A stretch of DNA of 64,000 nt from an uncultured Eubacteriales bacterium. GTDB lineage: Bacteria > Acidobacteriota > Aminicenantia > Aminicenantales > Aminicenantaceae. The stretch is from NCBI GenBank assembly GCA_964449165.1, contig CAYVAT010000013.1, positions 407 to 64,406 on the forward strand, read 5' to 3'. The notes beneath the pieces were generated by a model. The model saw only the letters and a program-made list of their open reading frames with translations. It did not search any database and had not been told where the DNA came from. Positions 1-28,054 of the stretch are shown here, one piece after another. Both the position numbers and the translations under genes were made by a program. The stretch's first letter is position 1. The number at the start of each line of letters is the position of its first letter.

Positions 1-1985
1 TGGGAATTACTCTAAAAGAGATTATTTATGATATTGGAGGCGGGATTCCCAAGGGAAAAAAATTTAAGGCAGTTCAGACCGGTGGACCATCAGGAGGCTG
101 TATCCCTGCAAGTCTGATTGATTTGCCAGTGGATTATGAAAAGTTGACTGAAGCCGGTTCCATAATGGGTTCCGGTGGAATGATTGTGATGGATGAAGAT
201 ACGTGTGTAGTGGATGTAGCGAAATATTTTATCGAGTTTACAAATGATGAATCCTGCGGAAAATGTTCATCCTGTAGAGAAGGCTCATCCCAACTCCTTG
301 AAATACTAAAAAAAATAACCAGGGGAGAAGGTGAAGAACAAGATCTTCAGACTTTGGAGGACCTCAGCCATGTGATAAAAGATACCTCAATGTGTGGATT
401 GGGTCAGACGCTGCCGAACCCGGTATTAAGCACATTGAAATATTTCATAAATGAATATATAGAACATATTAAATATAAAAGATGTTCTGCTTTAGTATGT
501 AAAGGTATAATTTCATCCGCCTGTCAGCATATATGTCCATTATCGCAGGATGTGCCCAGTTATATAGGGCTCATTGCTCAGGGAAAATTTGATGAAGCGA
601 TTAAAGTCGTAAGAAAAGAGAACCCATTACCCCTTATTTGCGGACGTGTATGTCATGCTCCTTGTGAAGAAAAGTGTGTAGCAGGGGAATGGGGTGATTC
701 CATAGCAATTAGATCGCTGAAACGTTTCCTCGCAGATTATGAGATGAAGAATGGGGTTATCATTGAAGAAAAACCGAAAAGTGAGAGAGCGGAGAAGATT
801 GCTGTGGTCGGTTCCGGTCCTGGAGGATTGACTTGTGCACATTACCTCGCCTTGGAGGGATATAAAGTTACTGTTTTTGAGAGTCAGGAAGTACCTGGAG
901 GCATGCTTGCGTTAGGCATCCCGGAATTCAGATTACCCAAGGGTGTATTGAAATATGAAATAGGCAGGATACGAAAATTAGGGGTTGAAATTAAAACAAA
1001 TACTACGATTGGGAAAGATATTCCGCTTGATAAGCTGAAAGAAGATTATAAGGCAATCTTCATTGCTGTCGGTGCCCACAAGGGTTTGAAGATGAAAGTC
1101 CCAGGTGAAGATTCTAAAGGAGTAATCGATGCGGTGGAATTCCTGAGGGATGTTAACCTGGGTCGCGAAGTAAAAATTGGGGATAAGGTTATAGTTATTG
1201 GTGGTGGAAATTCAGCCATAGATGCGGCTCGAGTAGTAAAACGAATGGGAAAGGACACGGAGATTTTATACCGAAGGACAAGAGCAGAGATGCCCGCTAT
1301 TAAGAGTGAAATCGAAGAAGCCATCATAGAGGGCATTGATATACAATTTCTCGCAGCTCCAGTTAAAGTTCTATCGAGCAATGGAAAAATGGAGGCTATA
1401 GAGGCTATCAGGATGGAACTAGGAGATGTAGATGCGAGCGGTAGAAGGCGCCCTGTTCCGATTGAGGGATCTGAATTTAAAATCAATGTGGATACTCTGA
1501 TCCTGGCCATAAGTCAGGAACCAGATGTGTCTTTATTGAATGGAAATGGATTGAATATTTCTAAGTGGAACACAATTGAAGTCGATCCTGAGACTCTTCA
1601 TACAAATATCGAGGGAGTATTTGCAGGTGGCGATGTGGTGACCGGCCCGAATACAGTAACCGAAGCCATGGCTCACGGAAAAGTTGGAGCTCAAATGATA
1701 GATAAATATATACGGGGAGATAAGCTGGAAAGAAAATACAAGGTGACTCGTCCGGCAGTCCGCGTTGAAGCCCTTGAGGTTGCAGAAGAAGAAATCAAAG
1801 AGCTCAAAAAACCTAAAATGCCATCGATGCCTATTGCTGAAAGGGTTAAGAGTTTCAAAGAAGTTGAATTGGGATTCACAGAAGCGGATGCGATTACTGA
1901 AGCGAAGCGTTGTCTCCGGTGTGATCTAGAAAGAGAAGAAGATAAAGCAGCAGAGAAAAAGAAGAATAACGAAGGGAAAAAATAA
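1..1985 (+). CDS. NuoF-like NAD(P)H-binding flavoprotein (C-terminal part) fused to a GltD-like FAD/NAD(P) oxidoreductase. It is 5'-partial: the reading frame is open from nucleotide 3.
   Basis: The frame opens upstream of the ORF-track Met: nt 3-122 translate to [35 protein letters not shown], the NuoF/HoxF FMN-NADH region. The [4Fe-4S] motif [12 protein letters not shown] and MCGLGQT are present. They are followed by a GltD-type Fe-S region ([13 protein letters not shown]) and a Rossmann motif [19 protein letters not shown]. Confidence 0.8.
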
Positions 1986-2085
1986 TGCTTCTTGAGATTG
2001 AAATTTTGGCATCTGATGACAAGAAGATACCAGGAATTGTAAACATAGAGAATTGTATTGAATGTGTTATAAGCGGAGGCTTGGC

Positions 2086-5000
2086 GTGATAGAGCTGACA
2101 ATAGATGGTAAGAAGAGTGAATTTCCTGAGGGTAAAACACTATTAGAATGTATTAAGAGTACTGGAATAAAGATACCGACTCTCTGTTATCATAAAGCTT
2201 TAACTCCATATGGAGCATGCAGATTATGTGTTGTAGAAGTGACTCAAGGCAACAGAACGGCAATTCAGGCTTCATGCACTTATCCGGCTATCAATGGTTT
2301 AATAGTGAACACCCATACTGAAAGAATAATAAAATCGAGAAAAATTATAGTTGAGCTATTATTAGCGAGATGCCCCGATTCAAAGGAGATACAGAAAATA
2401 GCAGAAGAATTGGGTGTAAAGGAAACACGGTTTAAGAAAAAAAATGAGGATTGTTTTCTTTGTGGCTTATGCGTGAGGATGTGTAATGAAAGGATGGGTA
2501 TCAGTGCAATCAATTTCGTTAATCGCGGTCCCCATAAGAAAGTAAGCCCGCCATTTGACGTGGTTTCTGATGTATGCCAGACATGTGGCGCCTGTGCTTT
2601 TATTTGTCCAACAGAAAGGATTAAACTCGAGGAAATCAGCAAGAATAAAGAAGTCCCCATATTGGATGAGTACAATGAAAGATTAATTAAAAGATCAGCT
2701 GCTTATATCCCATATCCTCAGGCTGTTCCTAATAAAGCTGTAATTGATGAGAGATATTGCGTACATATGCTTAAGGATGAATGTGGAGTCTGCAAAGAGT
2801 TTTGTGAAGCAGATGCAATTGATTATGAACAAAAAGAAAAGAAGAGTGAATTAAACGTCGGTGCAGTAGTTGTATCCCCAGGATTTGATATATTTGACGC
2901 AAAAATCAAGGAAGAATATGGATATGGATTATATCCAAATGTTGTTACGTCGCTTGAATTTGAAAGAATCTTATCTTCTACAGGGCCGTATCTCGGCAAA
3001 GTCTTAAGACCCAGTGATGGGACAAAGCCAAAAAGGATAGGATTTATTCAATGTGTCGGCTCGCGTGACATAGATCGGGATTATTGTTCCTCTGTATGCT
3101 GTATGTATGCGACAAAGGAAGCTATCATCGCTAAAGAGCATGCGGGTGAAGATTTAGAATGTGATATATTTTTTATGGACATGCGCGCATTCGGTAAAGG
3201 ATTTGATGCGTATTATCAAAGGGCAAAGGAACTTGGAGTAGATTATATCCGATGTCGTCCAGCTGCTGTGAAAGAAATTTCTCAAACAAAAAATCTTATA
3301 ATTGAGTATCTGATTGAAGATGATAAGAAAGTTTCTCGTGAATATGACATGGTTGTTCTATCTGTCGGTATAGTACCTCCAAAATCTGTAAAGGAAATTT
3401 CTGAAAAATTTGGCATCGAATTGAATGAATTTAACTTCTGTAAGACAGATCCATTTAGACCTGTTGAATCGACACGGGAGGGAATTTATACGTCAGGGCC
3501 TTTCACAGAGCCTAAAGATATACCTGAGACCATAATGCAAGCATCCGGAGCCTCATCAAAAGTTTTATCCCTTTTAAAAGACGTTAAAGGCAACTTAATA
3601 ACCCCAAAGGAATATCCGCCAGAAATAGATGTAGAAGGGCAGGAGCCAAGAATCGGAGTATTTATATGCCATTGCGGGACAAATATAGGCGGAGTGGTAA
3701 ATGTTCCAAGAGTCGTTGAATTTGCAAAAACACTTCCTAATGTTGTTTATGCAGAAGATAATTTATTTACCTGTTCAAATGATACTCAAAAAAAAATAAA
3801 AGAGAAAATAAAAGAACATAAGTTAAATCGTGTAGTCGTTGCTTCTTGTACGCCAAGGACTCACGAACCTCTATTCAGACATACAGTCCGGGAGGCGGGA
3901 CTAAACCCATATCTTTTTGAAATGGCGAATATCAGGGATCAATGCTCATGGATTCATATGCATGAACCTGAAAAAGCCACAGAGAAATCCAAAGACCTGG
4001 TGAGAATGACCGTAGCTAAATCAAGATTATTAGCACCTCTTCAAAAAATATCAGTACCAATAATAAAATCAGCGCTTGTTATCGGTGGCGGACTTTCTGG
4101 GATGACGTCTGCGCTTGAACTGGCAAGTCAAGGGTTTGATGTATATTTAGTGGAAAAAGAAAAAGAGCTGGGTGGAAATCTGAGACGTCTTCACTACTTA
4201 GTAACCGGAGAAAATCCGCAAGATGAGTTAAAAAAGCTTATTGAAAATGTAAAAAAGAATAAGAAAATCCATTTATATACAGAAGCCAGAATAGAAAAAT
4301 TTGAAGGTTCAATCGGAAATTTTAAAACAACTATTTCTTCAAAAGGAAAGTCAATAGAGCTTGGCCATGGTGTAGTGGTTGTTGCAACCGGTGCACAAGA
4401 ATATAAACCGAAAGAGTATTTATATGGTCAGCATGAAAGGGTTTTAACCCAACTCGAACTTGAAGAGCGCCTAAGCACAAACGGCGAGTGGTCAGCTCCA
4501 GATAAAAATCAAATGCCCAGGACCATTGTAATGATTCAATGCGTTGGCTCACGGGATGATGAAAGGCCTTATTGCTCAAGGGTTTGTTGTACAGAAGCTG
4601 TGAAGAACGCCTTAAAAATAAAAGAACTTTCACCTGAAGCATATATATATATATTGTACCGAGATATAAGAACTTATGGATTTAACGAAAGCTTCTATAC
4701 AGAAGCAAGGCGAAAGAACGTTGTATTCGTAAGGTATGATGAAGACCGGAAACCAGAAGTTTCAAAAAACGGAAACGGATTGCGGGTGGAAGTCTTTGAC
4801 CAGACTTTAAGGATGCCGATTGAGATATCTGCGGATTTAGTCGTGTTGTCAGCAGGAATAGTTCCAAATGATGACAGCGAAACAATTTCTCAATTTTTAA
4901 AAGTTCCTTTAAACACCGATGGATTTTTCCTTGAGGCACACATGAAGCTGAGACCGGTTGACTTTTCCACTGACGGTGTGTTTCTTGCGGGGATAGCCCA

Positions 5001-5352
5001 CAGCCCGAAGACGGTTTCAGAAAGCATTGCCCAGGCAGAGGCTGCCGCCTGCCGTGCAGCAGCAATTTTAAGCAAGGACGAGTATGAAACCGAGGCCACG
5101 ATTTCCTCGGTGAATGAAGAACTCTGTACCGGGTGCGGTACATGTGTCGAGGTATGCGAATTTGACACTCTTGAACTTGTCGAAACACCTGAGGGCGAGA
5201 TGGTATGCAGAGTGAATCAAGCGCTCTGCAAAGGCTGCGGCTGCTGCGCAGCGGCGTGCCCGAGCGGGGCGATCGAACAGAATGGCTTCAGGAGAGACCA
5301 GATCCTTTCAGCGGTTGATGCAGCAACAGCCTGGGGAGAAGAAAGTGGCTAA
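2086..5352 (+). CDS. Multidomain fusion: NuoG-like N-terminal 2Fe-2S/4Fe-4S domain, then a partial HdrA-like FAD segment, then a complete HdrA-like module (N-domain, FAD, C-terminal 2x[4Fe-4S]).
   Basis: The N-terminus TIDGKKSEFPEGKTLLECIKSTGIKIPTLCYH...GACRLCVV is NuoG/HydA-like, with Cys motifs CFLCGLCVRMC and CQTCGACAFICP. HdrA signatures QCVGSRD...YCSSVCC occur twice, plus GVFICHCGTNIGG, the dinucleotide motif VIGGGLSGM, and C-terminal CTGCGTCVEVCE / CKGCGCCAAACP. The likely start is GTG 2086 with a GGAGG 6 nt upstream; the ORF-track ATG 2062 is the alternative. Confidence 0.75.
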   Translation: MIELTIDGKKSEFPEGKTLLECIKSTGIKIPTLCYHKALTPYGACRLCVVEVTQGNRTAIQASCTYPAINGLIVNTHTERIIKSRKIIVELLLARCPDSKEIQKIAEELGVKETRFKKKNEDCFLCGLCVRMCNERMGISAINFVNRGPHKKVSPPFDVVSDVCQTCGACAFICPTERIKLEEISKNKEVPILDEYNERLIKRSAAYIPYPQAVPNKAVIDERYCVHMLKDECGVCKEFCEADAIDYEQKEKKSELNVGAVVVSPGFDIFDAKIKEEYGYGLYPNVVTSLEFERILSSTGPYLGKVLRPSDGTKPKRIGFIQCVGSRDIDRDYCSSVCCMYATKEAIIAKEHAGEDLECDIFFMDMRAFGKGFDAYYQRAKELGVDYIRCRPAAVKEISQTKNLIIEYLIEDDKKVSREYDMVVLSVGIVPPKSVKEISEKFGIELNEFNFCKTDPFRPVESTREGIYTSGPFTEPKDIPETIMQASGASSKVLSLLKDVKGNLITPKEYPPEIDVEGQEPRIGVFICHCGTNIGGVVNVPRVVEFAKTLPNVVYAEDNLFTCSNDTQKKIKEKIKEHKLNRVVVASCTPRTHEPLFRHTVREAGLNPYLFEMANIRDQCSWIHMHEPEKATEKSKDLVRMTVAKSRLLAPLQKISVPIIKSALVIGGGLSGMTSALELASQGFDVYLVEKEKELGGNLRRLHYLVTGENPQDELKKLIENVKKNKKIHLYTEARIEKFEGSIGNFKTTISSKGKSIELGHGVVVVATGAQEYKPKEYLYGQHERVLTQLELEERLSTNGEWSAPDKNQMPRTIVMIQCVGSRDDERPYCSRVCCTEAVKNALKIKELSPEAYIYILYRDIRTYGFNESFYTEARRKNVVFVRYDEDRKPEVSKNGNGLRVEVFDQTLRMPIEISADLVVLSAGIVPNDDSETISQFLKVPLNTDGFFLEAHMKLRPVDFSTDGVFLAGIAHSPKTVSESIAQAEAAACRAAAILSKDEYETEATISSVNEELCTGCGTCVEVCEFDTLELVETPEGEMVCRVNQALCKGCGCCAAACPSGAIEQNGFRRDQILSAVDAATAWGEESG

Positions 5353-5770
5353 GGAATTCGAACCCAGAATAGTGGCATTTCTTTGCAACTGGTGCTCGTA
5401 TGCTGGTGCAGATCTGGCTGGCGTCAGCAGGCTGCAGATGCCTCCCACATTCAGGGTTATCCGTGTGATGTGTTCGAGCCGCGTCGACCCGATGTTCGTG
5501 GTCAAAGCGTTTCTCGAAGGCGCTGACGGCGTGATCATGGCCGGATGCCTCCCGGGAGATTGTCACTACTTAAAGGGAAATTACTATGCGCGTCGAAGAT
5601 TTGCGGTTTTGAAAAAGACCTTTGAGAGTCTCGGATTGGAGCCTGAGCGTCTCCGGCTTTCGTGGGTTTCGGCCTCTGATGGACCGCGTTATGCGGAGGT
5701 CGTAAAAGAGTTCACAGAGGAAATACGAAAATTAGGACCTAGCCCGGCTCGTAGGGAAGTGTTTATCTAA
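5347..5770 (+). CDS. MvhD-like protein ([2Fe-2S] electron-transfer subunit of Mvh/Hdr complexes)
   Basis: FEPRIVAFLCNWCSYAGADLAG...RVMCSSRVDP...GCLPGDCHY is the MvhD signature. The start is uncertain: the ORF opens at 5282 and overlaps the upstream gene. GTG 5347 follows a GGGGAG, but ATG 5318 is also possible. Confidence 0.7.
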
Positions 5771-5872: not shown

Positions 5873-6229
5873 ATGGCAAAGATGGCAATTACATGCAATG
5901 GTTCGGCCGCACCGAATGTTTATCCGACCTTCATTCTCGGATCTTCAGCAGTGGCATCGGGTGATGAGGTAATCCTGTTCTTTACCCCGGGCGGAGCACC
6001 AGCCCTGGTGAAAGGCGAAATGGAGAAGATGCAGGACATAAAAGGGTACCCGAATTTGATTGAGCTGTACAATGGTATGGTCGAACTTGGGGCCAAAATC
6101 TACGCTTGCGAAATTTGCCTTGAGGCAAAGGATTTGAAGAAGGAAGACTTCAGGGAGGGAGTTGAGATCGTTGGGGCTACATCGTTTGTTAACGAGATTA
6201 AGGACGCGACAATTACGTTCTCGTTCTAG
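5873..6229 (+). CDS. DsrE/DsrF-like sulfur-relay family protein
   Basis: 118 aa of small alpha/beta protein with MAKMAITCNGS...ILFFTPGGAP...IYACEICLEAKDL. Size and conserved Cys context fit the DsrE/TusD family. A strong RBS, AAGGAGAGAG, lies upstream. Confidence 0.6.
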   Translation: MAKMAITCNGSAAPNVYPTFILGSSAVASGDEVILFFTPGGAPALVKGEMEKMQDIKGYPNLIELYNGMVELGAKIYACEICLEAKDLKKEDFREGVEIVGATSFVNEIKDATITFSF

Positions 6230-6264
6230 AGATCGATATAGGAAAATAAAAGGAGGAAGGAATA

Positions 6265-6486
6265 ATGGCTAATTATACGTTGGATACCCTAGGACTTAAA
6301 TGCCCACAGCCGGTTCTGAAGGTGGCTGTGAAGGCAAAGGAATTGCAGCCGGGAGACATGTTGGAGGTTATAGCCGACTGTGAGTCTTTTCCTAAAGATA
6401 TTGAGGCATGGTGCCAGAAGACAGGAAAGACGCTGCTTTTCTGTAATACAGAAGGTGGTAAACATACAGCACAGATTCAATTCTAG
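6265..6486 (+). CDS. TusA-like sulfurtransferase (SirA/YedF/YeeD family)
   Basis: 73 aa; LDTLGLKCPQPVLK carries the diagnostic CPxP motif of TusA-family sulfur carriers. RBS AAGGAGGAAGG lies upstream. Confidence 0.75.
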   Translation: MANYTLDTLGLKCPQPVLKVAVKAKELQPGDMLEVIADCESFPKDIEAWCQKTGKTLLFCNTEGGKHTAQIQF

Positions 6487-6606
6487 TTTTCAGTGATTGA
6501 TAGTTAGTAGCTAACAGGGATCGGATTCAGCCTTCCTGTCGGCTATTTCTATCAGCTTGTCGGAGTGGAGGCTGCATTGCCGGAGGAACAAGAAAAGGAA
6601 GAAAAG

Positions 6607-7026
6607 ATGAGCGAGGAATTTGAGCCGCGTATAGTTGCTTTTTTATGCAACTGGTGTTCGTATGCCGGTGCGGATGTGGCGGGTTCGAGCAAACTAGAGA
6701 TGCCGCCTACCATAACACCCGTGAAGGTAATGTGTTCGAGCCGGGTTGATCCGGTAATGGTGATCACAGCTTTTCTGCGCGGGGCCGACGGTGTGCTGAT
6801 TGCCGGATGTCATCCGGGAGATTGTCACTACGACAAAGGCAATTATTACGCGCGCAGGCGATTTGCGGTTTTAAGAGAAATTTTCAATACGCTTAGACTT
6901 GAAGGGGAGCGGTTGAGGCTTTCCTGGGTCTCCGCGTCGGAAGGACCGCGATACGCAGAGGTAGTGCGGGAGTTTTCCGAAAAGATCAAGCAGTTGGGCC
7001 CGAACCCTGTAAAACAGAAGACATAA
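6607..7026 (+). CDS. MvhD-like protein, second paralog
   Basis: MSEEFEPRIVAFLCNWCSYAGADVAG...VMCSSRVDP...GCHPGDCHY. The ORF-track start is GTG 6565; ATG 6607 with AAGGAAG upstream matches paralog N-termini better. Confidence 0.7.
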   Translation: MSEEFEPRIVAFLCNWCSYAGADVAGSSKLEMPPTITPVKVMCSSRVDPVMVITAFLRGADGVLIAGCHPGDCHYDKGNYYARRRFAVLREIFNTLRLEGERLRLSWVSASEGPRYAEVVREFSEKIKQLGPNPVKQKT

Positions 7027-7053
7027 AACACCTTCAGGTGCTGGAGAAAGACT

Positions 7054-8340
7054 ATGACTAAAAAACAGCAAGAGGCCAAGGATCAGGTTCTTGTGATCGG
7101 TGCGGGAATGGCCGGGATCGAGGCCAGCCTTACACTGGCCTCTGCCGACAAGAAGGTCTACCTCGTGGAGAAGGAACCGCTGTTCGGCGGAAAGGTTATC
7201 AAGTTCGAAGAAGTCTTTGCCAACATGGAATGCTCCACATGTATGGCAGCGCCGAAACAGCAAGAAGTGCTTCAGAATGAGAAGATCGAGTTGCTTACGC
7301 TCAGCAAGGTAAAAGAAGTTAAAGGAGAAGCGGGTAATTTTACTGTAAAGATTGAAAAAAAGGCAAGATACGTGAGCCTCGAGGACTGCATAGGCTGTAA
7401 CGAGTGTTTTGAACCCTGCCCGGTAAGTCTGCCCAATGAGTTCGAGGAGAACCTGGGTGAGAGAAAGGCTATATATATCCCCTGTCCCGGCGCGCTACCG
7501 AATGCCCCGTCGATAGATACAGATAATTGCGTGAGATTCACGAAGGGAGAAGATTGCCAGTTGTGCAAGGAAGCCTGCATGTTTGAGGCAATCGATTTCG
7601 ACCAGAAAGATGAAGAAGTGGAACTCAATGTTGGGGCCATAATTGTAGCTACAGGATTTGACCTTATGGATTCCGAGCAGATTTCTGACTGGGGTTACAA
7701 TGGCGAAGCGAACGTGTATACCGCACTTGAGATGGAAAGGTTGTATGCGTCGAACGGGCCAACTGCGGGAAAAATCATTTTAAGAAACAATAAAGAACCG
7801 GCATCCGCGGCAATGATTCACTGTGTGGGACGCGAAAAAGCGGGTTACTGTTCTGGCGTATGCTGTATGTACAGTTTCAAGTTTATTCATTACTTGAAAG
7901 ACAAACTGCCGGAAATAAAACTGTATGATGTCTACAGCGACTTTTGTATGCCAGGCAAGAGCTATCAGCCATTTTTCGAGCATTTGAAAGATAAAACAGA
8001 GTCGGTTCGGTTCCAAGATCTGAAAATCGTGCATCAGAACGGTAAAGTACGGATCAAATATAAATCCTTGGCAGGCAAGGAGGAAAAACTGGATGTAGAT
8101 ATGGTGATTCTTGCACCCGCTATCGTGCCCGCCAAGGGGGCATCGGAATTGGCCAAGAAACTGGGCATTGAACAAACTGAGAGCGGATTTTTTGGTTTTC
8201 AATCGAGTGACCGTTCACCGGAGGAGAGCGGCCGTGAGGGGATTTATCTTGCGGGGTGTGTTCTCGGGCCCGAAGACATTGGCAGAGCAATTGCCCAGGC
8301 CGAGGCAGCGGCAGGGAAAGTACTTGCATTGCTTAGTTGA
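7054..8340 (+). CDS. HdrA-like flavoprotein, central module: FAD domain with inserted 2x[4Fe-4S] ferredoxin, lacking the HdrA N- and C-terminal domains
   Basis: VLVIGAGMAGIEASL, FEEVFANMECSTCM, CIGCNECFEPCP, CQLCKEAC, IHCVGREKAGYCSGVCCMY. It is collinear with residues ~140-560 of the canonical HdrA at 15747-17669. Confidence 0.75.
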   Translation: MTKKQQEAKDQVLVIGAGMAGIEASLTLASADKKVYLVEKEPLFGGKVIKFEEVFANMECSTCMAAPKQQEVLQNEKIELLTLSKVKEVKGEAGNFTVKIEKKARYVSLEDCIGCNECFEPCPVSLPNEFEENLGERKAIYIPCPGALPNAPSIDTDNCVRFTKGEDCQLCKEACMFEAIDFDQKDEEVELNVGAIIVATGFDLMDSEQISDWGYNGEANVYTALEMERLYASNGPTAGKIILRNNKEPASAAMIHCVGREKAGYCSGVCCMYSFKFIHYLKDKLPEIKLYDVYSDFCMPGKSYQPFFEHLKDKTESVRFQDLKIVHQNGKVRIKYKSLAGKEEKLDVDMVILAPAIVPAKGASELAKKLGIEQTESGFFGFQSSDRSPEESGREGIYLAGCVLGPEDIGRAIAQAEAAAGKVLALLS

Positions 8341-8355
8341 GCGAAGAGGAGTGTA

Positions 8356-10038
8356 ATGGAGAAGAAGAGCGTAATGGATAGGAAAATCGGCGTTTATGTT
8401 TGTGAATGCGGGCCGAACATAGCAGATGCTCTGGATATAGACAGGGTTATCGAAGCTGTGTCGGGCATGGAGAATGTCGCTGTTATCGATAGGTATAAAC
8501 TCCTGTGCTCCCCGGACGGGAAGAAATACCTTGCCGAGCAGATAAAAGAACATGGGCTGACACACTTGGTGGTTGGAGCGTGTTCCCCAAAACAGCATGA
8601 AGCGACTTTTATGGGCGTATGTAAAGAAGGTGGGATGAATCCTTTCCTGATGCAGATGGCCAATCTTCGAGAGCAGATCGCATGGATAACTCCAGACAAA
8701 GAAAAAGCTACCGAACGGGCGATCAGGCACATGAAAGCGGCTGTTCGACGTGTCCGGTATCACGCGCCGTTGGAACAAAAAGAAATTGAATGTAATGCAG
8801 ATGTGCTGGTCATAGGTGGAGGTATAGCGGGAATGTCGGCAGCCCTGCTGCTGAGCAGTCCGGACCGAAAAGTGTTTCTAGTCGAAAAGAATACAGAACT
8901 CGGAGGAATGGTTTCAAGATACGAGAAGCTCTTTCCGGATATGATCAGAGGCAGTGAGATTACGGAAAGGCGCGTCAAGAGCTTGAAAGAAGACGATAAT
9001 ATCGAGGTGCTAACAGGTACAAAAGTGGAGAAAATCCTCGGCTTTTTCGGAAACTTTGTAGTTACTGTCCGCGAAGGAGAATCCGAACCTCGAGAGTTTA
9101 AAGTGGGAGCTGTTGTAGTGGCCACAGGTGCAGACCTTTTCGATCCCGGTACCCTGGAGGAATACGCGTACGGGAAGATAAAAAATGTTGTTACTGCCCC
9201 CGAGGTTGAAGAAATGAATCTGAAAGGAAACATTAAGCTCGAAAACGGAAAAGAACCGAAAAGTGTTGGGATTATTCATTGCGTTGGTCGGAAAGAGAAA
9301 GGGTACTGCTCAGAGGTGTGCTGCAGAGCGGGGATGAAGATATCGCGCTATCTGAAAGAAAAGATTCCGGCCGTTTCAATAAAGCATTTTTATCAGGATC
9401 TCTGTGTTCCGGGCTCTGGAGCGCAGGCGTTCTACGAGGAGACCCGGGATGCGGGGGCGGAGTTTGTCTGCACAGATACAGTTAAACTGAAGGAGTCCGA
9501 TAAAAATATCAAAATAGATCACGACGGTAAAGTTGATACAGTAGACATGGCGGTCCTTCTGCCCGCAATAGAACCGGCAGAAGACACTTCTGATATTTCC
9601 GAAATGCTCGGTGTTGAAAAGGGAAAGGGAGGATTTCTTACGGAAGAACACGAGAAGATAAGCCCGGTCACTACAACCGTCGAAGGAGTATGCCTGGCCG
9701 GGTCTGTTTCAGGACCAAAAACCGTACGTGACGCCGTGTCCCAGTCAGAAGCTGCAGCGGGGAAGATACTTTCCTCATTGGTGCCGGGTCGAAAACTGGA
9801 AACAGAAGCCAAGACTTCGAAAATATTCGAGAATTTGTGTACGGGCTGTAGAACTTGTCTGACGGTATGCTGTTACAGCGCAATCGAGTATGATGAATCG
9901 AGAGGAGTTTGTGTGGTTAATGAGGTGCTCTGCAAGGGATGCGGGAATTGCGCAGCAGCTTGCCCCTCTGGAGCGGCAATGCATCAGCAATTTACACCAA
10001 AACAAATCTACAGGGAAGTGATAGAGATATTGCGATGA
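8356..10038 (+). CDS. HdrA-like flavoprotein with N-terminal Cys domain and C-terminal 2x[4Fe-4S], but no inserted ferredoxin domain
   Basis: IGVYVCECGPNI...LLCSPDG...VGACSPKQ; VLVIGGGIAGMSAAL; IHCVGRKEKGYCSEVCC; C-terminal CTGCRTCLTVCC and CKGCGNCAAACPSG. RBS GAGGAG lies upstream. Confidence 0.75.
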   Translation: MEKKSVMDRKIGVYVCECGPNIADALDIDRVIEAVSGMENVAVIDRYKLLCSPDGKKYLAEQIKEHGLTHLVVGACSPKQHEATFMGVCKEGGMNPFLMQMANLREQIAWITPDKEKATERAIRHMKAAVRRVRYHAPLEQKEIECNADVLVIGGGIAGMSAALLLSSPDRKVFLVEKNTELGGMVSRYEKLFPDMIRGSEITERRVKSLKEDDNIEVLTGTKVEKILGFFGNFVVTVREGESEPREFKVGAVVVATGADLFDPGTLEEYAYGKIKNVVTAPEVEEMNLKGNIKLENGKEPKSVGIIHCVGRKEKGYCSEVCCRAGMKISRYLKEKIPAVSIKHFYQDLCVPGSGAQAFYEETRDAGAEFVCTDTVKLKESDKNIKIDHDGKVDTVDMAVLLPAIEPAEDTSDISEMLGVEKGKGGFLTEEHEKISPVTTTVEGVCLAGSVSGPKTVRDAVSQSEAAAGKILSSLVPGRKLETEAKTSKIFENLCTGCRTCLTVCCYSAIEYDESRGVCVVNEVLCKGCGNCAAACPSGAAMHQQFTPKQIYREVIEILR

Positions 10039-11117
10039 AAGAAGGGCATGTAATCAAAGCAGCTGAAGGGACGAGTAAAGCTATAGCCGGGCTTTTAAAG
10101 AGCTCGCTGGAGAAGAAAATCTTTGAGGCTGTGCTTGTGCCAATACGCACAAACGAAGGATATAACTACGTTTTGACGGATAACGCCGACCTTCTGGAAA
10201 GGGCCGAGATAATGCCCCCGGTGATGTCTGTTCAAGGGGGCAAGGTGTTGCAGGCTCTGACTCGGCACGGGAAAAGCAGGAAAATCGCCGCCGTAATGCG
10301 GATGTGCGAAATACGGGCTGCTGTAGAGCTTTCCAAGTTGGAGCAGACGGATTTGGAGAACGTTTTCTTTATCAGTGTGGATTGTAATGGCGTAACACCT
10401 CTCTCCGATTACCTGGAAGATCCGTCCAGCGCCGGCACGAAGCTCCGGCCACTTTGCGAAATCTGTACGTCATTCAGTGTTGTTGGAGATAAACAGGCCC
10501 AGGATGTTGATATACACGCTGCAACCATGGGTGTAGATGAAGGAGAAGTGTTGTTTATTCCCATGAGCGATGACGGTGAAAGTGTGCTGGAGAAACTGGC
10601 CATTGATAAGAAAAAAGACGCCGGGAAATGGGTAAAGGAAACAGAGAAGTTGCAGAAGCAGCGTATAGCCGCCAGGGAAAAAGCTCTGAAAGAAACAAAG
10701 GAAATGGTAAAAGGACTGAACGGTTTGCTGGAGGTGTTCAGCCGGTGCATAGAATGTCACAACTGCCGCAGTGTATGCCCGATATGCTATTGTCGGCTCT
10801 GCTTTTCTGATAAGGATACTTTCCGGGAAACAGGCGCGGAATATCTTGATCGTGTGCAGGCCCAAGGGGTGATGAAGTGTACAGATGACCTTCTGCAGTT
10901 CCATTTGGGCCGGATGTCGCACATGAGCTTATCGTGCGTGTCCTGCGGAATGTGTGAAGATGTGTGCCCGGTGGACATACCGGTTGGACAAGTATTCAGC
11001 GCCGTAGCCGAGAAAACTCAGGCGATATTTGACTATTTTGCGGGTAAAAGTTCTGATGAGGAACAGCCGCTCAGGACATTCGAGCTGGGTGAATTGGTTG
11101 AAGTAGAGGACAAATGA
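10035..11117 (+). CDS. FrhB/FdhB/FpoF-family protein (coenzyme F420 hydrogenase/dehydrogenase beta-subunit-like flavo-Fe-S protein), paralog 1
   Basis: RMCEIRAAVEL corresponds to the FrhB motif GTPCQIQAVR. C-terminal CIECHNCRSVCPICYC and CVSCGMCEDVCP. The start ATG at 10035 overlaps the previous stop (ATGA); the ORF-track Met at 9939 lies inside the upstream gene. Confidence 0.65.
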   Translation: MKEGHVIKAAEGTSKAIAGLLKSSLEKKIFEAVLVPIRTNEGYNYVLTDNADLLERAEIMPPVMSVQGGKVLQALTRHGKSRKIAAVMRMCEIRAAVELSKLEQTDLENVFFISVDCNGVTPLSDYLEDPSSAGTKLRPLCEICTSFSVVGDKQAQDVDIHAATMGVDEGEVLFIPMSDDGESVLEKLAIDKKKDAGKWVKETEKLQKQRIAAREKALKETKEMVKGLNGLLEVFSRCIECHNCRSVCPICYCRLCFSDKDTFRETGAEYLDRVQAQGVMKCTDDLLQFHLGRMSHMSLSCVSCGMCEDVCPVDIPVGQVFSAVAEKTQAIFDYFAGKSSDEEQPLRTFELGELVEVEDK

Positions 11118-11155
11118 ATGGTCTGTGACCGGCCGCGCATGCTTGGAGACTTGAA

Positions 11156-12265
11156 ATGACTAAGATGTTGAAAATAGATAAAGCGATTTCAGACGGGACC
11201 AGAGATTTTCTGCGCTATCTTCTGGACAGCAAGAACGTGCGTAGTGTGGCAGTGCTGAGGAGAGATAGGACGTCTGGCTGGGTCAGCTACAGCCTGATCT
11301 CTGATCCGGAAAAGATAGAGGAAGCGGTCCCTTTTTCTCCGGTCATGCCATACAACGCGGGTGAGTATCTCTCTCGCCTCACATCCAAGGGACCGTTCGA
11401 TAAGCCTGTTGCGGTGGTATTGCGTCCATGCGAACAGCGAGCGTTTGTGGAGCTTGTAAAACGACAGCAGGGCAGTTTGGACAATATCATAACAATCAGT
11501 TCGGTTTGTCCGGGAGTTTATCCTTTGAAAACATTTGTTCGTGAGAACGAGGACAAGCTGTTTAAGGATTACTGGTCGGTGGTAGCTGATGGAAAACAAC
11601 CTGAGGGGATCCGGGACACGTGTTCGTTCTGTGAGCATTTTGTTCCGGCTGAAGCCGACATTGTCATACCCATAGCAGGCGAGAAGGATACGGGCAAAGA
11701 ATGCAAATTGTTCGCGAATACCGAAAAGGGAGCTGAACTACTGAAGGGGATAGATGGGAAAATACAGGAATCTGAACTGGAGACAAAAGGAACCGAAGCT
11801 ATCCGGCAGTTGCGGAAGGAAAACGAAGAAAAGATGCTGGCCGATCTGGGGAAAAAGTTATCGGGATTAGATGGGCTGGTAGAAATGTTCAGTACGTGCA
11901 TTGGCTGTCATGGATGTCGGTCGGTTTGCCCGATTTGTTACTGCCGCTTATGTGAATTTGATTCTTCTCGAAGTGAATACGAGGCACGAAAATATGAAAT
12001 CGAACTGCGCAAGAAGGGGGGCGTAAGAATACCCCCGGGCTCCATAGCCTTTCAGATAGGTCGGATGATCCATATAGGCCTTTCCTGTGTGAGCTGCGGG
12101 ATGTGTAGCGACGTGTGTCCCGCCGATATCCCGGTTGCAAATATTTTCAGGAAAGCGGGAAAGGCGGTCCAGGATGTGTTCGAATACATTCCTGGAAAGG
12201 ACCTTGAGGATAGTATCCCTGTCACGACATTTGAAGAAGAGGAATTGAGAAGTGTTGAGGATTAA
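11156..12265 (+). CDS. FrhB/FdhB/FpoF-family protein, paralog 2
   Basis: RPCEQRAFVELVK; CIGCHGCRSVCPICYCRLC; CVSCGMCSDVCPADIP. It aligns with paralog 1 throughout. Confidence 0.65.
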   Translation: MTKMLKIDKAISDGTRDFLRYLLDSKNVRSVAVLRRDRTSGWVSYSLISDPEKIEEAVPFSPVMPYNAGEYLSRLTSKGPFDKPVAVVLRPCEQRAFVELVKRQQGSLDNIITISSVCPGVYPLKTFVRENEDKLFKDYWSVVADGKQPEGIRDTCSFCEHFVPAEADIVIPIAGEKDTGKECKLFANTEKGAELLKGIDGKIQESELETKGTEAIRQLRKENEEKMLADLGKKLSGLDGLVEMFSTCIGCHGCRSVCPICYCRLCEFDSSRSEYEARKYEIELRKKGGVRIPPGSIAFQIGRMIHIGLSCVSCGMCSDVCPADIPVANIFRKAGKAVQDVFEYIPGKDLEDSIPVTTFEEEELRSVED

Positions 12266-12729
12266 GAGGGTGGTGAATCAGATTTTATTATCTTTGTTAT
12301 TTCATCTACAATTCCCGGAATTTTACTTTTTACCCCAGGAGTACATTCCTCGCCAAACGTAGTATTATCTTCTATTTCTATTGCATAAATTTCAATAATT
12401 TGAGGTATTTTATATCCCAGCTTCCTTCCGAGTTCAATTGCAGTTCTAATATTCACTCCATGTGAGTATGATGGAGTTGAAAAAGTGCCTATATCTTCCA
12501 GGTTTAGTTTGTAAAGGGTGCCAGGTGTTTCTTTTTCTGTTTTTATGGAGTCGATGATGATAAGTCTCTCGTATTCACCAATATAGTCAAGCAGTGAAAT
12601 TCCCGCCAGACTTGTTTTTATCACTTCAATATCAGGAAGGGAAAGTTTCTCTATCTCATTTGCCACACAGATGCCTACCGAATCATCTGTCAGAATTGGG
12701 TTTCCAACTCCCAATATAAGAGTTTCCAT
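12262..12729 (-). CDS. [NiFe] hydrogenase maturation endopeptidase (HycI/HybD/FrhD family)
   Basis: ILGVGNPILTDDSVGICVANEI...IIIDS is typical of hydrogenase C-terminal processing proteases. It sits directly downstream of the large subunit. Confidence 0.8.
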   Translation of the reverse strand: METLILGVGNPILTDDSVGICVANEIEKLSLPDIEVIKTSLAGISLLDYIGEYERLIIIDSIKTEKETPGTLYKLNLEDIGTFSTPSYSHGVNIRTAIELGRKLGYKIPQIIEIYAIEIEDNTTFGEECTPGVKSKIPGIVDEITKIIKSDSPPS

Positions 12730-12786
12730 TTTTGAAGACGGGAAATATCAATCCACAGTAATGAGCGTGAAGAGATCGAAATATTT

Positions 12787-14250
12787 TTACGACCTTCTGA
12801 TAGTGTCTATTATATTCGCTTTATGATCTCTAATGTTGACTTCGAGAGGCATATGCCCGGGCAGTGAATGAGTAGCACAGGCAAGGCAAGGGTCATATGC
12901 ACGGAATGCCATTTCTACCATGTTAAGTAATCCCTCAGATACCTTTCCCTCCTTTATGAGCCCTTTTGCCGCTTTCTCTATTGACATACATATCGAAGCA
13001 GCATTGTTAACTGTAGCAACAATTAAATTGACGTCTGTAAGAACACCTTTATCGTCTGTCTTGTAATGATGATAGAGAGTACCTCTTGGTGCTTCTACTA
13101 CGCCAATCCCTTCATCAGGAACAGCGGTTGGGATACTTCTAACATCGGGGTCGAGAATTTCCTCGTCCTGGGCTAACTCCAAAAGCCTTTCAGCTGCATA
13201 GAGAAGCTCCACTAGCCTTGCCCAATGATAGGCAAGAGTGTTGTGTGCTGGCTTACCACCCAAGATATTATACATTTTTTCATATTCTACTTGAGCCAGT
13301 GGCGTTGCCATACCATCGGACGCATTGAGTCTTGCAAGAGGAGCTACTCGATAAACTCCGCTGTCCTTTCCATCAACGAATCCCTTCCAGCCGACACCTT
13401 TAAGATATGGAAATTTTATGTAGCTCCACGGCTCAACATGCTCCTCAATATGATTCAGATACTCCCGAGACTTAAACTTGGCAAACTCCTTACCTTCAGG
13501 GTCAACTACTCTAATATCTCCGTCATAAAAATTGACTTTATTGTTCTCATCAACAAGTCCCATATAATATGTTTTGTGTTTGTAAATATCTCCCACAATG
13601 ACATCTACATACTCTTTGTTTTTGAGAACAATGTCTTCAAAAGCTTTCAAAGCGAATTTGGCAAATTCTATCGCATCTTTCCCTATTTGGATATATTCTT
13701 CTCTATCTTCTTTGGTAACCCCCTTGGATACACCCCCAGGAAGATTACATACGGGGTGAATAACCCTGCCTCCCTGCTTTGTAATGATGTTGCGCAGCCG
13801 CTTTCTGATATCTATAACCTTCTTGCCCGCGTCAAGACCAACTTTCTGAATGACTCCCAAAATATTCCTCTCTCCTGCGGGTGCCTGTGGTCCAACAACA
13901 AAATCAGGTCCCCCAAGGAAGAAGAAGTGGAGAGTATGGTCTTCAGCCATGAAAGCAGAATTAATAAGCTCTCTTATCTTCTTGGCCGGTGACGGAGGGG
14001 TTACATGGAACAAATCATCAAGCGCCTTGCCAGATGCCATATGATGGGTAGTGGGACATACGCCACATATCTTGGGAGTGATTCTCGGCATTTCCTCTGC
14101 CATGCGTCCTTCAGAAAATTTCTCAAATCCCCTCAGCTCAGGAACTTGAAAAAAAGCCTTCTCCACATTTCCCTCGTTATTAAGAAATATTTCTATCTTC
14201 CCATGACCTTCAAGCCTTGTTATTGGGTCTATCGTTATTCTTTTTGCCAT
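12787..14250 (-). CDS. mvhA: [NiFe] hydrogenase large subunit, Mvh/group-3c-like
   Basis: N-terminal RLEGHGKIEI and PKICGVCPTTHH; C-terminal DPCLACATHSLPGH (the Ni-Fe ligating CxxC pair); RBS AGGGAGA. Confidence 0.85.
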   Translation of the reverse strand: MAKRITIDPITRLEGHGKIEIFLNNEGNVEKAFFQVPELRGFEKFSEGRMAEEMPRITPKICGVCPTTHHMASGKALDDLFHVTPPSPAKKIRELINSAFMAEDHTLHFFFLGGPDFVVGPQAPAGERNILGVIQKVGLDAGKKVIDIRKRLRNIITKQGGRVIHPVCNLPGGVSKGVTKEDREEYIQIGKDAIEFAKFALKAFEDIVLKNKEYVDVIVGDIYKHKTYYMGLVDENNKVNFYDGDIRVVDPEGKEFAKFKSREYLNHIEEHVEPWSYIKFPYLKGVGWKGFVDGKDSGVYRVAPLARLNASDGMATPLAQVEYEKMYNILGGKPAHNTLAYHWARLVELLYAAERLLELAQDEEILDPDVRSIPTAVPDEGIGVVEAPRGTLYHHYKTDDKGVLTDVNLIVATVNNAASICMSIEKAAKGLIKEGKVSEGLLNMVEMAFRAYDPCLACATHSLPGHMPLEVNIRDHKANIIDTIRRS

Positions 14251-14329
14251 TTTATCTCCCTTTTCCTCAAAGTGATGTAAATTGTCTTATAAACTTAACA
14301 AACAATAAAAAATTGCTCCAAGCATTCAT

Positions 14330-15310: not shown

Positions 15311-15348
15311 AATTGCCTCCTTCTAAAATAGACATCATTTCTACTTAT

Positions 15349-15750
15349 TTAGGATAATTCTAGGGGACCTAAATTTTTTACAGTTTCTGCCATTTCATTT
15401 GCTACTTTTGCAAATCTCTCTCCTTCGCCTGCTGCAACCCAGTCCAATCTAACTCTTTCTTCTTCAATCCCCAGCTGCTTCAGGGTATTCTTCAAAAGAT
15501 GTGCTCTCCGAAGTGCCTTATAGTTTCCTGTTTTGTAATGGCAGTCCCCGGGATGGCATCCTAAAATTAACACTCCGCTTGCGCCCTCTTTTAATGCTTG
15601 TATCACAAGCTCTGGATCTACACGACCGCTGCACATAACCCGAACGATTCTTACATTCGCAGGATAATTCAATCGTGCGCCCCCAGCCTTATCTGCTCCT
15701 TCGTATGAACACCAATTACATAGAAAACTAACGATTGTTGGCTCATTCAT
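15349..15750 (-). CDS. mvhD: MvhD ([2Fe-2S] subunit linking hydrogenase and HdrA)
   Basis: TIVSFLCNWCSYEGADKAG...RVMCSGRVDP...GCHPGDCHY; RBS AAGGGGG; 4-nt overlap with the hdrA stop. Confidence 0.8.
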   Translation of the reverse strand: MNEPTIVSFLCNWCSYEGADKAGGARLNYPANVRIVRVMCSGRVDPELVIQALKEGASGVLILGCHPGDCHYKTGNYKALRRAHLLKNTLKQLGIEEERVRLDWVAAGEGERFAKVANEMAETVKNLGPLELS

Positions 15751-27789: not shown

Positions 27790-27864
27790 GGGCCGTTAGC
27801 TCAGAGGGAGAGCACCGGCCTTTTAAGCCGGGTGTCGCTGGTTCGAGTCCAGCACGGCTCACCA
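27790..27864 (+). tRNA. tRNA-Lys (anticodon UUU)
   Basis: GGGCCGTTAGCTCAGAGGGAGAGCACCGGCCTTTTAAGCCGG...GGTTCGAGTCCAGCACGGCTCACCA is a cloverleaf with anticodon loop CTTTTAA and an encoded CCA. Confidence 0.85.
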
Positions 27865-27874
27865 CGTCATGAAC

Positions 27875-27949: not shown

Positions 27950-28054
27950 TTTTTCTATAGAGTTGCCAATGATGGGCAATGTCCATATAATCATATTTGA
28001 TTATATCCACTATCATGAGTAAGCTTGACCCGATTATGATGGCTTATCCTGAGG

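Follow-up and report, generated by a model that had tools for sequence, protein, structure and literature searches.

The joining of Bfu-type modules to HdrA, the plugging of NAD(P)H-dependent units into HdrA and the fusion of HdrA proteins in pairs are all already known. Here, we analyzed a gene that brings such elements together in a 64,000-nucleotide stretch of DNA (hereafter, the window) from contig CAYVAT010000013.1 of assembly GCA_964449165.1, assigned to an uncultured bacterium of the Aminicenantaceae. The gene lies at positions 2086 to 5352 on the forward strand and encodes a protein of 1088 amino acids (aa), in which a BfuA-like iron-sulfur domain is followed by HdrA sequence; residue numbering throughout refers to this 1088-aa form, which starts at the GTG at 2086. 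It belongs to a family that is widespread and biochemically uncharacterised. On balance, we favour the view that its product is the central electron-transfer scaffold of a multi-subunit hybrid of two electron-bifurcating machineries, one an NAD(P)H flavoprotein module of the HydABC/Bfu type and the other a module of the HdrA type, wired as proposed below.

The closest characterised analogue is the class II benzoyl-CoA reductase (BCRII) of Geobacter metallireducens, with its subunits BamGHI and BamE, a Bam[(BC)2DEFGHI]2 complex described by cryo-electron microscopy (bioRxiv 10.64898/2026.04.10.717634). BamE is a fused HdrA dimer. Its bifurcating flavin adenine dinucleotide (FAD) is held by the N-terminal TrxR unit, in which a CxxC (C59-C62) and Lys280 are present and an N-domain is missing; the second FAD is structural. 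The C-terminal ferredoxin clusters of BamE, together with BamF, serve as the entry for electrons, and the inserted ferredoxin of BamE is the low-potential exit (bioRxiv 10.64898/2026.04.10.717634).

Other precedents concern HdrA itself. A GltD/NfnB unit lies inside the inserted ferredoxin domain of HdrL of Desulfobacterium autotrophicum (PMC2702500), of HdrA9-11 of ANME-1, a lineage of anaerobic methanotrophic archaea (ANME; PMC9012536), and of the "type III HdrA" (PMC12054007). In the tandem or fused HdrA proteins of ANME (3/4, 5/6 and 12/13), one unit has an N-domain without Cys197 and the other has Cys197 without an N-domain, and these pairs have been read as obligate heterodimers (PMC9012536); they are the "type II HdrA" of a later classification (PMC12054007). 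In a survey of the Bfu family and its supplement, Bam-Bfu is the only Hdr-linked type listed (PMC9304861).

Domain anatomy and the split HdrA unit

Profile and PDB searches bore out the domain order given in a first-pass annotation, made from the sequence alone, namely a NuoG/HydA-like N-terminus followed by HdrA sequence present one and a half times. Residues 1-183 (positions 2086 to 2634, forward strand) form a BfuA/HydA-N/HoxU/NuoG-like domain according to Pfam, NCBIfam and PDB matches. These include Fer2_4 (E=8.5e-16), the HoxU profile (aa 5-207, E=1e-28), the A6 profile of FeFe-hydrogenases (aa 1-209, E=1e-36), the NuoG profile and the BfuA subunit of the Bfu complex of a tungsten aldehyde oxidoreductase (PDB 9mqx_A, aa 2-181, E=4e-39). 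The predicted ligands of the N-terminal [2Fe-2S] cluster are C34, C45, C48 and C64, and two CxxCxxCxxxC motifs are found further on in the domain (C123-C133 and C164-C174). The motif of a His-ligated cluster is absent, as the sequence HTERIIKSRKIIVELLLARCPDS has no HxxxCxxC. In this, the domain resembles the small "Type 2" BfuA, and the marks of a BfuA subunit, an A1 [2Fe-2S] cluster and [4Fe-4S] clusters in a HydA-N/NuoG fold, are all found within aa 1-183. In an alignment of 57 full-length homologues, all predicted cluster ligands of the protein were invariant, comprising the [2Fe-2S] site, three CxxCxxCxxxC-type motifs between aa 123 and 240, two CVGSRD...YCSxxCC sites, the cysteines of the N-domain and the C-terminal 2x[4Fe-4S] motifs.

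About 18 residues separate C174-P175 of the BfuA-like domain from the start of HdrA-homologous sequence. The first HdrA unit, module 1, extends from aa 190 to 505 (positions 2653 to 3600, forward strand) and corresponds, by phmmer and by the HdrA2 profile, to HdrA residues ~262-570: aa 188-499 match positions 253-562 of the HdrA2 profile, and aa 194-445 match residues 262-511 of the Methanothermococcus HdrA (PDB 5odc_A) with 237 bits in phmmer. It holds the middle and C-terminal parts of the TrxR fold. Two sites that the first-pass annotation had placed in this piece are both present, the second inserted-ferredoxin motif (C225, C233, C236 and C240) and the CVGSRD...YCSSVCC site (C323, C334, C338 and C339). 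The pair E293/K344, equivalent to HdrA E356/K409, is invariant in every relative checked. Within this polypeptide, module 1 has no GxGxxG.

Module 2 opens with an HdrA N-terminal domain (aa 519-650; positions 3640 to 4035, forward strand), which aligns to residues 2-130 of 5odc_A and whose [4Fe-4S] cysteines (C528, C530, C563, C588 and C620) are invariant. It continues with a TrxR-like FAD domain (aa 651-1000; positions 4036 to 5085, forward strand), matched by Pfam Pyr_redox_2/NAD_binding_8 at 663-782 and carrying a GxGxxG at ~667-672, a CVGSRD...YCSRVCC site (C819, C830, C834 and C835) and the pair E793/K840. This second E/K pair is invariant in the 57-sequence alignment, yet varies in some wider relatives. 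The protein ends with a C-terminal 2x[4Fe-4S] ferredoxin domain (aa 1001-1088; positions 5086 to 5352, forward strand; Fer4 at 1008-1066), equivalent to residues 568-647 of 5odc_A. The matches to 5odc_A cover aa 519-757 (residues 2-241, 264 bits) and aa 937-1078 (residues 507-647, 134 bits). The stretch between them, aa 758-936, is ~86 residues shorter than that of HdrA and contains neither ferredoxin motifs nor extra cysteines, so that module 2 lacks the inserted ferredoxin domain. It also lacks Cys197, the segment equivalent to "TFPTNDCxxC" reading VTGENPQDELKK. This second piece is thus not the complete HdrA module that it had been taken for.

The remainder of module 1 was found in a separate gene of the same operon, in related loci that were retrieved through the orthologues P0001 (93% identity) and P0040 (78% identity). 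In locus L001, which carries the 93% orthologue, and in L002, an Aminicenantes chromosome with the 78% orthologue, the order from 5' to 3' is a gene for a ~405-aa QmoC-like protein, a gene for a 295-aa protein, a gene for a 127-aa 2Fe-2S protein, a gene for a 1030-aa NuoF-GltD protein, the orthologue of the gene under study and mvhD. The 295-aa protein of L001, encoded three genes upstream, is a fusion of two parts. Its aa 13-127 match HdrA residues 142-256 (E=2e-45 against 8rvv_A) and hold the GxGxxG, the CxxC of the Cys197 type (LDKTFPTNDCAMC) and, from the inserted ferredoxin domain, the first CxxCxxCxxxCP motif; a HydC/NuoE domain (E=1e-43) makes up its aa 147-293. In the 1088-aa protein, homology to HdrA starts at the equivalent of HdrA residue 262. 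Counterparts of both are found in P0122 (1025 aa), an unsplit relative, whose aa 14-134 share 69% identity with the partner and whose aa 110-1022 share 58% with aa 156-1080 of the 1088-aa protein; both pieces are therefore colinear with unsplit relatives of ~1000 aa. The "half HdrA", first described as a partial fragment, is by these alignments the C-terminal three fifths of an HdrA cut between its two inserted-ferredoxin motifs and completed by the upstream HdrA(N)-NuoE gene, with nothing lost or duplicated.

Of the features of an HdrA-type flavoprotein, the TrxR-fold FAD domain, the CVGSRD...YCSxxCC site with the Lys409 and Glu356 equivalents, and both ferredoxin domains were found in this way, with the GxGxxG and the first inserted-ferredoxin motif of module 1 supplied in trans. 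The N-domain occurs only in module 2, and the Cys197-type CxxC only in the trans-encoded piece of module 1. This complementary distribution is observed, and ligation of the N-domain cluster by Cys197 is predicted from it. Because module 2 combines the N-domain with the C-terminal ferredoxin domain and lacks Cys197 and the inserted ferredoxin domain, and the split module has both of the latter and no N-domain, module 2 is probably the complementary pseudo-partner of the split module, and the protein would therefore form an intramolecular HdrA heterodimer. The NCBIfam HdrA equivalog cut-offs were missed (887 against 1100 for HdrA2, 683 against 1400 and 623 against 1300). Since these cut-offs were missed and the window is bacterial, the protein belongs to the HdrA and BfuA families by structure and is not a CoB-CoM heterodisulfide reductase.

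The reading frame itself is a single open reading frame (ORF) from 2062 to 5352 on the forward strand, without internal stop. The GTG at 2086 is most likely a better start than the ATG at 2062, since GGAGG lies at 2076-2080, a few bases upstream of that GTG, and since homologues are mostly 1087-1088 aa long with the N-terminus MIELTI. The start at 2086 given by the first-pass annotation was thus upheld, whereas its length of 1096 aa belongs to the ATG at 2062. A 34-aa ORF (1985-2089) spans the interval from the stop of nuoF-gltD to the GTG start, its own stop overlapping that GTG. We considered it as a coupled small gene and rejected it, as it is probably neither conserved nor a gene: in L004, the NuoF-GltD match stops ~35 nucleotides before the start of the homologue, which leaves no room for it.

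Three further cysteines of module 1, C359, C390 and C452 (nucleotides ~3160, 3253 and 3439), are conserved among close homologues. They were rejected as an additional site: only C452 is retained in distant proteins with the same N-terminal fusion (Type I, see below) and it is not retained in most unsplit relatives, C359 and C390 are variable, and none of the three is general.

Operon, relatives and described systems compared

A word-indexed protein search of ENA, NCBI, JGI and Logan assemblies gave, among the matches listed, >120 clusters with 71-93% identity and 99-100% query cover. The homologues are annotated just as "heterodisulfide reductase subunit A" or "FAD-dependent oxidoreductase", and such automatic labels conceal the architecture. 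The carriers include chromosome records of metagenome-assembled genomes (MAGs; CP070825, CP070656 and CP070727). One match with 90% identity is labelled Theionarchaea DG-70. An archaeal origin was rejected, as the window encodes a sigma-54 activator and an NAD-dependent DNA ligase (LigA).

When one genome per species was scanned, 80 loci were recovered. The same N-terminal fusion (Type I) was present in 46 of the fetched loci, at 47-92% identity. These loci span more than 12 phyla, with carriers in Aminicenantes, Acidobacteriota, Fidelibacterota, a Melioribacter-labelled MAG (Ignavibacteriota), Actinomycetota, Planctomycetota, Aerophobetes, Dehalococcoidia, Spirochaetota, Stahlbacteria, Desulfobacterota and archaea-labelled MAGs. 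An exhaustive search of 50%-identity representatives returned 22,996 matches at E<=1e-3, 3,097 of them at E<=1e-30. Among the best 150 of the 22,996, the N-terminal domain was covered by P0121, P0126 and, in part, P0176 alone, the others being doubled HdrA proteins of ~1000 or ~1500 aa. Because so few of these best 150 matches cover the N-terminal domain, the form studied here is one branch within a large family whose members are HdrA pairs fused in one chain.

Across the fetched loci and the representatives, four alternatives were seen at one and the same point of the inserted ferredoxin domain: nothing, a polyferredoxin, an in-frame GltD/NfnB unit, or a run of separate genes. Nothing is inserted in Type III proteins (~1000 aa), represented by P0122 and most of 13 "III/other" loci; a polyferredoxin is inserted in P0131; and GltD/NfnB is inserted in frame in Type II proteins (~1500 aa; P0123 and 22 loci), whose HdrA parts are 53-66% identical to ours. 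In Type I, the intervening genes belong to a HydABC/Bfu operon and run hydC, a small 2Fe-2S protein gene and hydB. By this series, the low-potential branch of HdrA has its plug-in point in the inserted ferredoxin domain.

The partner gene is located upstream in 37 of the 46 Type-I loci, and its GxGxxG, its CxxC, its four ferredoxin cysteines and the 2Fe-2S cysteines of its NuoE part are essentially invariant. Of the nine loci without it, four have <3.5 kb of upstream DNA, two (L009 and L069) are cut by a contig end and two (L050 and L082) have 100-N scaffold gaps upstream, which leaves L055 as a true exception. The ~405-aa protein encoded further upstream joins an HdrC-like 2x[4Fe-4S] N-terminus to a NarI-like membrane part (the Nitrate_red_gam region); at 407 aa, it matches the qmoC profile from end to end, scoring 191 bits where the cut-off is 300. 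Many lineages have such a QmoC-like protein as the predicted high-potential partner, and loci of Sedimentisphaerales and Dehalococcoidia have an HdrC with a CCG-domain HdrB.

The gene immediately upstream was assigned in the first-pass annotation to NuoF-GltD, and Pfam and PDB matches agree with that identity; only its 3' part lies in the window (positions 3 to 1985, forward strand; 661 codons in a frame that remains open to the left edge), beyond which the gene runs off. The matches are NADH_4Fe-4S (E=6e-32), Fer4_20 (E=1.5e-27) and Pyr_redox_2 (E=3e-36) in Pfam and, in the PDB, the GltD domains of the StnC/NfnA type (E<=1e-105) and the C-terminal region of HydB (E~1e-45). The encoded part holds the C-terminal 4Fe-4S region of NuoF, the GltD/NfnB 2x[4Fe-4S] domain and the FAD/NAD(P)H domains; the full 1030-aa orthologue of L001 has, in addition, an N-terminal 2Fe-2S domain, a flavin mononucleotide (FMN) domain and SLBB before the NADH_4Fe-4S and GltD parts. 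In the lineage of the window, GltD with its own 2x[4Fe-4S] replaces the C-terminal ferredoxin domain of HydB. The counterpart of NuoF in locus L008 (Fidelibacterota) is a HydB of canonical form that has the C-terminal 2x[4Fe-4S] domain, and all BfuB/BfuC core domains are present there. The earlier proposal that an NAD(P)H dehydrogenase is covalently linked to an HdrA-type flavin is supported by the conserved synteny with NuoF-GltD in many genomes.

The simplest description of the operon would be that a Bfu cassette (hydC, a small 2Fe-2S gene, hydB and hydA-N) is located inside an hdrA gene, the 3' part of hdrA replacing the H-cluster domain of HydA and hydC being joined to the 5' part of hdrA. 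Genes of the DRTGG, CBS-HATPase and PHP kinds are companions of HydABC operons. In L008, five such genes (DRTGG, CBS+HATPase, DRTGG, PHP and HATPase) lie at 7251-10004, between hydB and the homologue of our gene, and support the capture of a whole hydrogenase-type cassette.

Directly downstream of the gene, mvhD (FlpD), encoding a [2Fe-2S] adaptor subunit, extends from 5345 to 5770 on the forward strand (Pfam FlpD, E=1e-55; VhuD profile, E=2e-36), its probable GTG start at 5345 overlapping the stop of the gene. MvhD is found 3' of the homologue in most loci, and an orthologue of 141 aa is placed alike in L001. On the reverse strand (12262 to 15310), the window encodes a HycI protease (12262-12729), a [NiFe] hydrogenase large subunit (12787-14250; VhuA, E=2e-120) and a small subunit (14330-15310; VhuG, E=5e-64). 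Across the loci, the VhuA matches range from E=2e-120 to 1e-135 and the VhuG matches from E~1e-64 to 1e-68, all under the curated equivalog cut-offs. Genes for small and large subunits of the Mvh type occur <=10 kb from the homologue in a large share of the fetched loci, in different phyla and in all three types. From this neighbourhood, a Vhu/Mvh-type [NiFe] hydrogenase is a probable partner of the complex.

These features allow a comparison with the described systems. Like the gene cluster studied here, BCRII couples a HydBC/Bfu-type module (BamGH and the BfuA-like BamI) to BamE, to the MvhD-like BamF and to the HdrBC/HdrD-like BamD, and the order of units and the spacing of motifs in the unsplit P0122 (C66/C69, K289) match those of BamE (C59-C62, K280), as far as the text description of BamE allows the comparison. 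In contrast to BCRII, the BamI-like and BamE-like parts are here in one polypeptide, the first HdrA unit is split with its N-terminal piece joined to a BamG/NuoE-like subunit, NuoF carries GltD, the tungsten-containing BamBC module is absent, the partner is QmoC-like or HdrCB, and an Mvh-type hydrogenase is usually encoded nearby. HdrL, HdrA9-11 and the type III HdrA share with our locus an NAD(P)H flavoprotein placed at the same point of HdrA and followed by mvhD, and the Type II relatives have their very form; the insertion is, however, one in-frame domain there, whereas it is made up of separate genes here (NuoE, small 2Fe-2S, NuoF with or without GltD, BfuA-N). The type II and ANME HdrA pairs show the same complementarity, with K409/E356 equivalents in both units, but the order of units is the reverse of that in ANME HdrA3/4, and the BfuA domain and the split are additional here.

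The methanogen MvhAGD-HdrABC complex (5ODC) gives the best match in sequence and fold (E=9e-186) and resembles our system in its cluster motifs, its MvhD adaptor and the nearby genes of an Mvh-type hydrogenase. Unlike that complex, the present system is not built on a homodimeric 650-aa HdrA, has no HdrB in the operon of this lineage and comes from a bacterium, outside any context of methanogenesis. With the Bfu family (HydABC, NfnABC/StnABC and WOR-Bfu; PMC9304861), it shares a small BfuA, a BfuC-like NuoE, a BfuB-like NuoF with an N-terminal 2Fe-2S and, in some lineages, the canonical ferredoxin domain of HydB; in contrast to that family, HdrA follows BfuA, and a catalytic H-cluster, pterin or F420 domain is absent. 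QmoABC of sulfate reducers likewise combines two complementary HdrA-like flavoproteins with an HdrC-like Fe-S/NarI-like membrane subunit, whereas the HdrA-like units here are fused, split and joined to a Bfu module, the qmoC cut-off was missed and the loci examined showed no apr genes.

The HdrA classification of 2025 (PMC12054007) contains no Nuo-fused or split class, and our literature search found no description of a covalent BfuA-HdrA fusion, of a flavin domain split over two Bfu-fused polypeptides or of this operon. The first-pass annotation knew of no described HdrA with this domain order, and we found no paper on the exact split and NuoG-fused form, but the principle is known, both from BCRII and from GltD in HdrL, HdrA9-11 and the type III HdrA. 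Proteins of this architecture are frequent in the databases, but the architecture is not a characterised one.

Proposed electron path and alternatives

The sequences and loci show which domains are present, that one HdrA unit is split, that the two units complement each other, that the operon is conserved and that hydrogenase genes lie close by; the mechanism that follows is inferred by homology with Mvh-Hdr (5ODC) and BCRII. Electrons from the Mvh-type [NiFe] hydrogenase would enter through MvhD, the C-terminal ferredoxin clusters and the N-domain cluster, and would arrive at the FAD of the split module, the presumed bifurcating flavin. This FAD is proposed as the bifurcating one because E293/K344 is invariant while the pair of module 2 varies in some relatives, and because it is the flavin of the N-terminal TrxR1 that bifurcates in BamE. 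The high-potential electron would leave through the CVGSRD/YCSSVCC cluster towards the QmoC-like quinone-reducing subunit, or towards HdrCB in other lineages, and the low-potential electron would leave through the inserted ferredoxin domain straight into the covalently joined BfuA wire. A BfuA-like wire normally docks onto NuoF/HydB and NuoE/HydC. Here, it would lead to NuoF(FMN)-GltD(FAD) and to the reduction of NAD(P)+, or of NAD+ and ferredoxin in lineages with a canonical form of HydB. Overall, H2 would drive the reduction of NAD(P)+ (and of ferredoxin in the latter lineages), with the reduction of a quinone or disulfide as the pull, which would be of use when only traces of H2 are present; operation in the opposite sense is just as conceivable.

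Somewhat more tentatively, we propose a wider picture, in which a whole Bfu cassette would have been inserted, at the level of the operon, into the inserted ferredoxin domain of a BamE-like doubled HdrA, so that two polypeptides, joined to NuoE/HydC and to HydA-N, respectively, would together make up the bifurcating flavin domain. The resulting interlocked "double-bifurcation" complex would link H2, NAD(P)H (and ferredoxin in some lineages) and a quinone or disulfide, and could be a main physiological partner of the group-3c-type hydrogenases of uncultured bacteria.

Several points weigh against the hydrogenase-fed path. In BCRII, the solved analogue, BamI feeds the C-terminal ferredoxin domain of BamE and not the inserted one, which would speak for wiring in the opposite sense. 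Both modules of the 1088-aa protein keep the E/K pair, leaving either FAD as a candidate for bifurcation. The partner and QmoC-like genes lie outside the window, and their presence in this genome is deduced from the 92-93% identical, syntenic loci L001 and L005. L055 (Desulfobacterales) has a homologue of the gene without the upstream partners. An AlphaFold2 model built from a 57-sequence alignment reached a pLDDT of 65.5 and a pTM of 0.55, with values <50 in the Fe-S region (aa 117-254); searched with Foldseek, it recovered the HdrA fold (5odc_A, TM 0.70 on the target) and the BfuA fold (9mqx), and nothing more. Finally, the physical complex, the flavin occupancy of the split domain, the direction of the electrons and the substrates are all inferred.

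A possible but less probable arrangement is the wiring of BCRII itself, in which NuoE/NuoF-GltD would be the input. Electrons of NAD(P)H, possibly confurcated, would pass through BfuA, the C-terminal ferredoxin domain and MvhD to the bifurcating FAD, and from there to QmoC/HdrCB on the high-potential side and through the inserted ferredoxin to ferredoxin, or to H2 by way of the hydrogenase, on the low-potential side. Such a path, from cluster I3 of BamI to E1/E2 in the C-terminal part of BamE, BamF and the bifurcating FAD, is that of the only solved Bfu-HdrA machine, and the same subunit types are encoded here. Aminicenantes are reported to live by fermentation, and H2 production by this route would fit this. 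However, one covalent chain leads from BfuA into the second half of the inserted ferredoxin domain, NuoE is joined to the first half, GltD or a polyferredoxin occupies exactly this site in relatives, and MvhD is short (137-162 aa) when compared to the extended BamF that contacts BamI. We rate the BCRII-like wiring below the hydrogenase-fed path because the position of the fusion and the presence of GltD or polyferredoxin at the same site put the NAD(P)H module on the inserted-ferredoxin branch.

It is unlikely that the system plays a Qmo-like role in sulfur metabolism, exchanging electrons among menaquinol, NAD(P)H and a persulfide or disulfide carrier of the DsrE/TusA/DsrC type, with the hydrogenase as an incidental neighbour. 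The QmoC-like subunit upstream, replaced by HdrCB in some lineages, would suit such a role, as would a DsrE gene directly downstream in the window, L001 and L005 and a TusA gene in the window and L001, TusA not having been searched for elsewhere; HdrL1 of D. autotrophicum also adjoins dsrABC (PMC2702500). Among the fetched loci, however, DsrE matches were obtained in L001 and L005 only, the DsrE and TusA genes belong to an adjacent second Hdr set, genes for Mvh-type hydrogenases co-occur far more widely, and no apr, sat or dsr genes were seen beside the Type-I loci inspected.

Less probable still is that the half HdrA is a degenerate, flavin-free relic whose sole role is to connect the NuoG-like domain to a single functional HdrA, either as an Fe-S wire or as a structural spacer, which is roughly how the first-pass annotation pictured it. 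The absence of GxGxxG from module 1 in this polypeptide, and the view that one of the two TrxR domains of BamE is structural, could be taken in its favour. Yet the Rossmann piece is present in the adjacent operon gene and is 58-69% identical to its counterpart in unsplit relatives and in methanogen HdrA, the FAD-binding and Cys motifs of the partner are invariant in the 37 loci that carry it, and E293/K344 of module 1 is invariant and more conserved than the pair of module 2.

The base composition changes inside the gene. Near nucleotide 4900, the GC content at third codon positions (GC3) rises from 0.30 to 0.59 and stays there through mvhD and the next ~7 kb. Residues 1001-1088 are 40-45% identical to the majority type of Aminicenantes, against 65-89% for the remaining protein, and the same mosaic was found in about a dozen independently assembled homologues. 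Because the mosaic is common to these assemblies, the C-terminal ferredoxin domain is a variant swapped in by an old recombination and not a product of mis-assembly. That an assembly chimera or an unnoticed frameshift fused separate NuoG-like and HdrA genes, as the sharp GC3 step alone could suggest, is highly improbable, since this step coincides with a domain swap seen in many independent assemblies and is remote from the NuoG/HdrA junction, and since an uninterrupted protein of ~1087 aa occurs in the >120 listed clusters from ENA, NCBI, JGI and Logan, MAG chromosome records included.

Other genes of the window and wider significance

A second Hdr gene set occupies 5873-12265. It comprises DsrE (5873-6229), TusA (6265-6486), a second MvhD (6565-7026), HdrA428 (7054-8340) and HdrA560 (8356-10038), and ends on its 3' side with genes for a 392-aa Fer4_8 protein and a 369-aa FrhB_C/Fer4 protein. 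HdrA428 has the CxxC and the inserted ferredoxin and no N-domain, and HdrA560 has the N-domain and the C-terminal ferredoxin and neither Cys197 nor inserted ferredoxin. Together, they form an unfused pair of paralogues that divides the HdrA features between its members as modules 1 and 2 do. The sulfur-carrier genes of this set suggest a persulfide or disulfide as its substrate.

Beside the hydrogenase genes, in a cluster extending from 12262 to 17669, a canonical 640-aa HdrA with all five domains is encoded at 15747-17669 on the reverse strand, which brings the number of HdrA systems in an 18-kb part of the window to three. In L001, an FlpD/MvhD gene lies beside the gene for the hydrogenase small subunit. 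Genes for a PAS histidine kinase and a sigma-54-dependent response regulator (18351-21231) adjoin the hydrogenase/Hdr cluster. In L055, a kinase/regulator pair of that sort (17-2569) is located directly 5' of the homologue, with MvhD and a MetV-like DUF5981 gene on its 3' side. Such pairs may regulate the operon. The lineage of L055 could, from its MetV-like gene, have a partner of the MetFV type.

Further along the window, a 458-aa [FeFe]-hydrogenase-like protein is encoded at 24086-25462 on the reverse strand; it combines the C-terminal domain of [FeFe]-hydrogenase large subunits with two ferredoxin motifs and the Fe-S domain PF04060. The context is otherwise that of an ordinary bacterium, with tandem tRNA-Lys(UUU) and tRNA-Glu(UUC) genes (27790-27950), a tRNA-Val(UAC) gene (38037-38111) and a gene for a 1123-aa GH38 alpha-mannosidase (29566-32937).

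The coupling of Bfu to HdrA has so far been shown for class II benzoyl-CoA reductase alone, in a preprint of 2026. The gene family described here, which occurs in at least a dozen mostly uncultured phyla, would be a second, far wider and differently wired case. The role of group 3c (Mvh-type) [NiFe] hydrogenases outside methanogens has been described as unresolved (PMC6472368). For these enzymes, the operon offers a proposal, in which H2, NAD(P)H or ferredoxin, and a quinone or disulfide would be linked in one machine.

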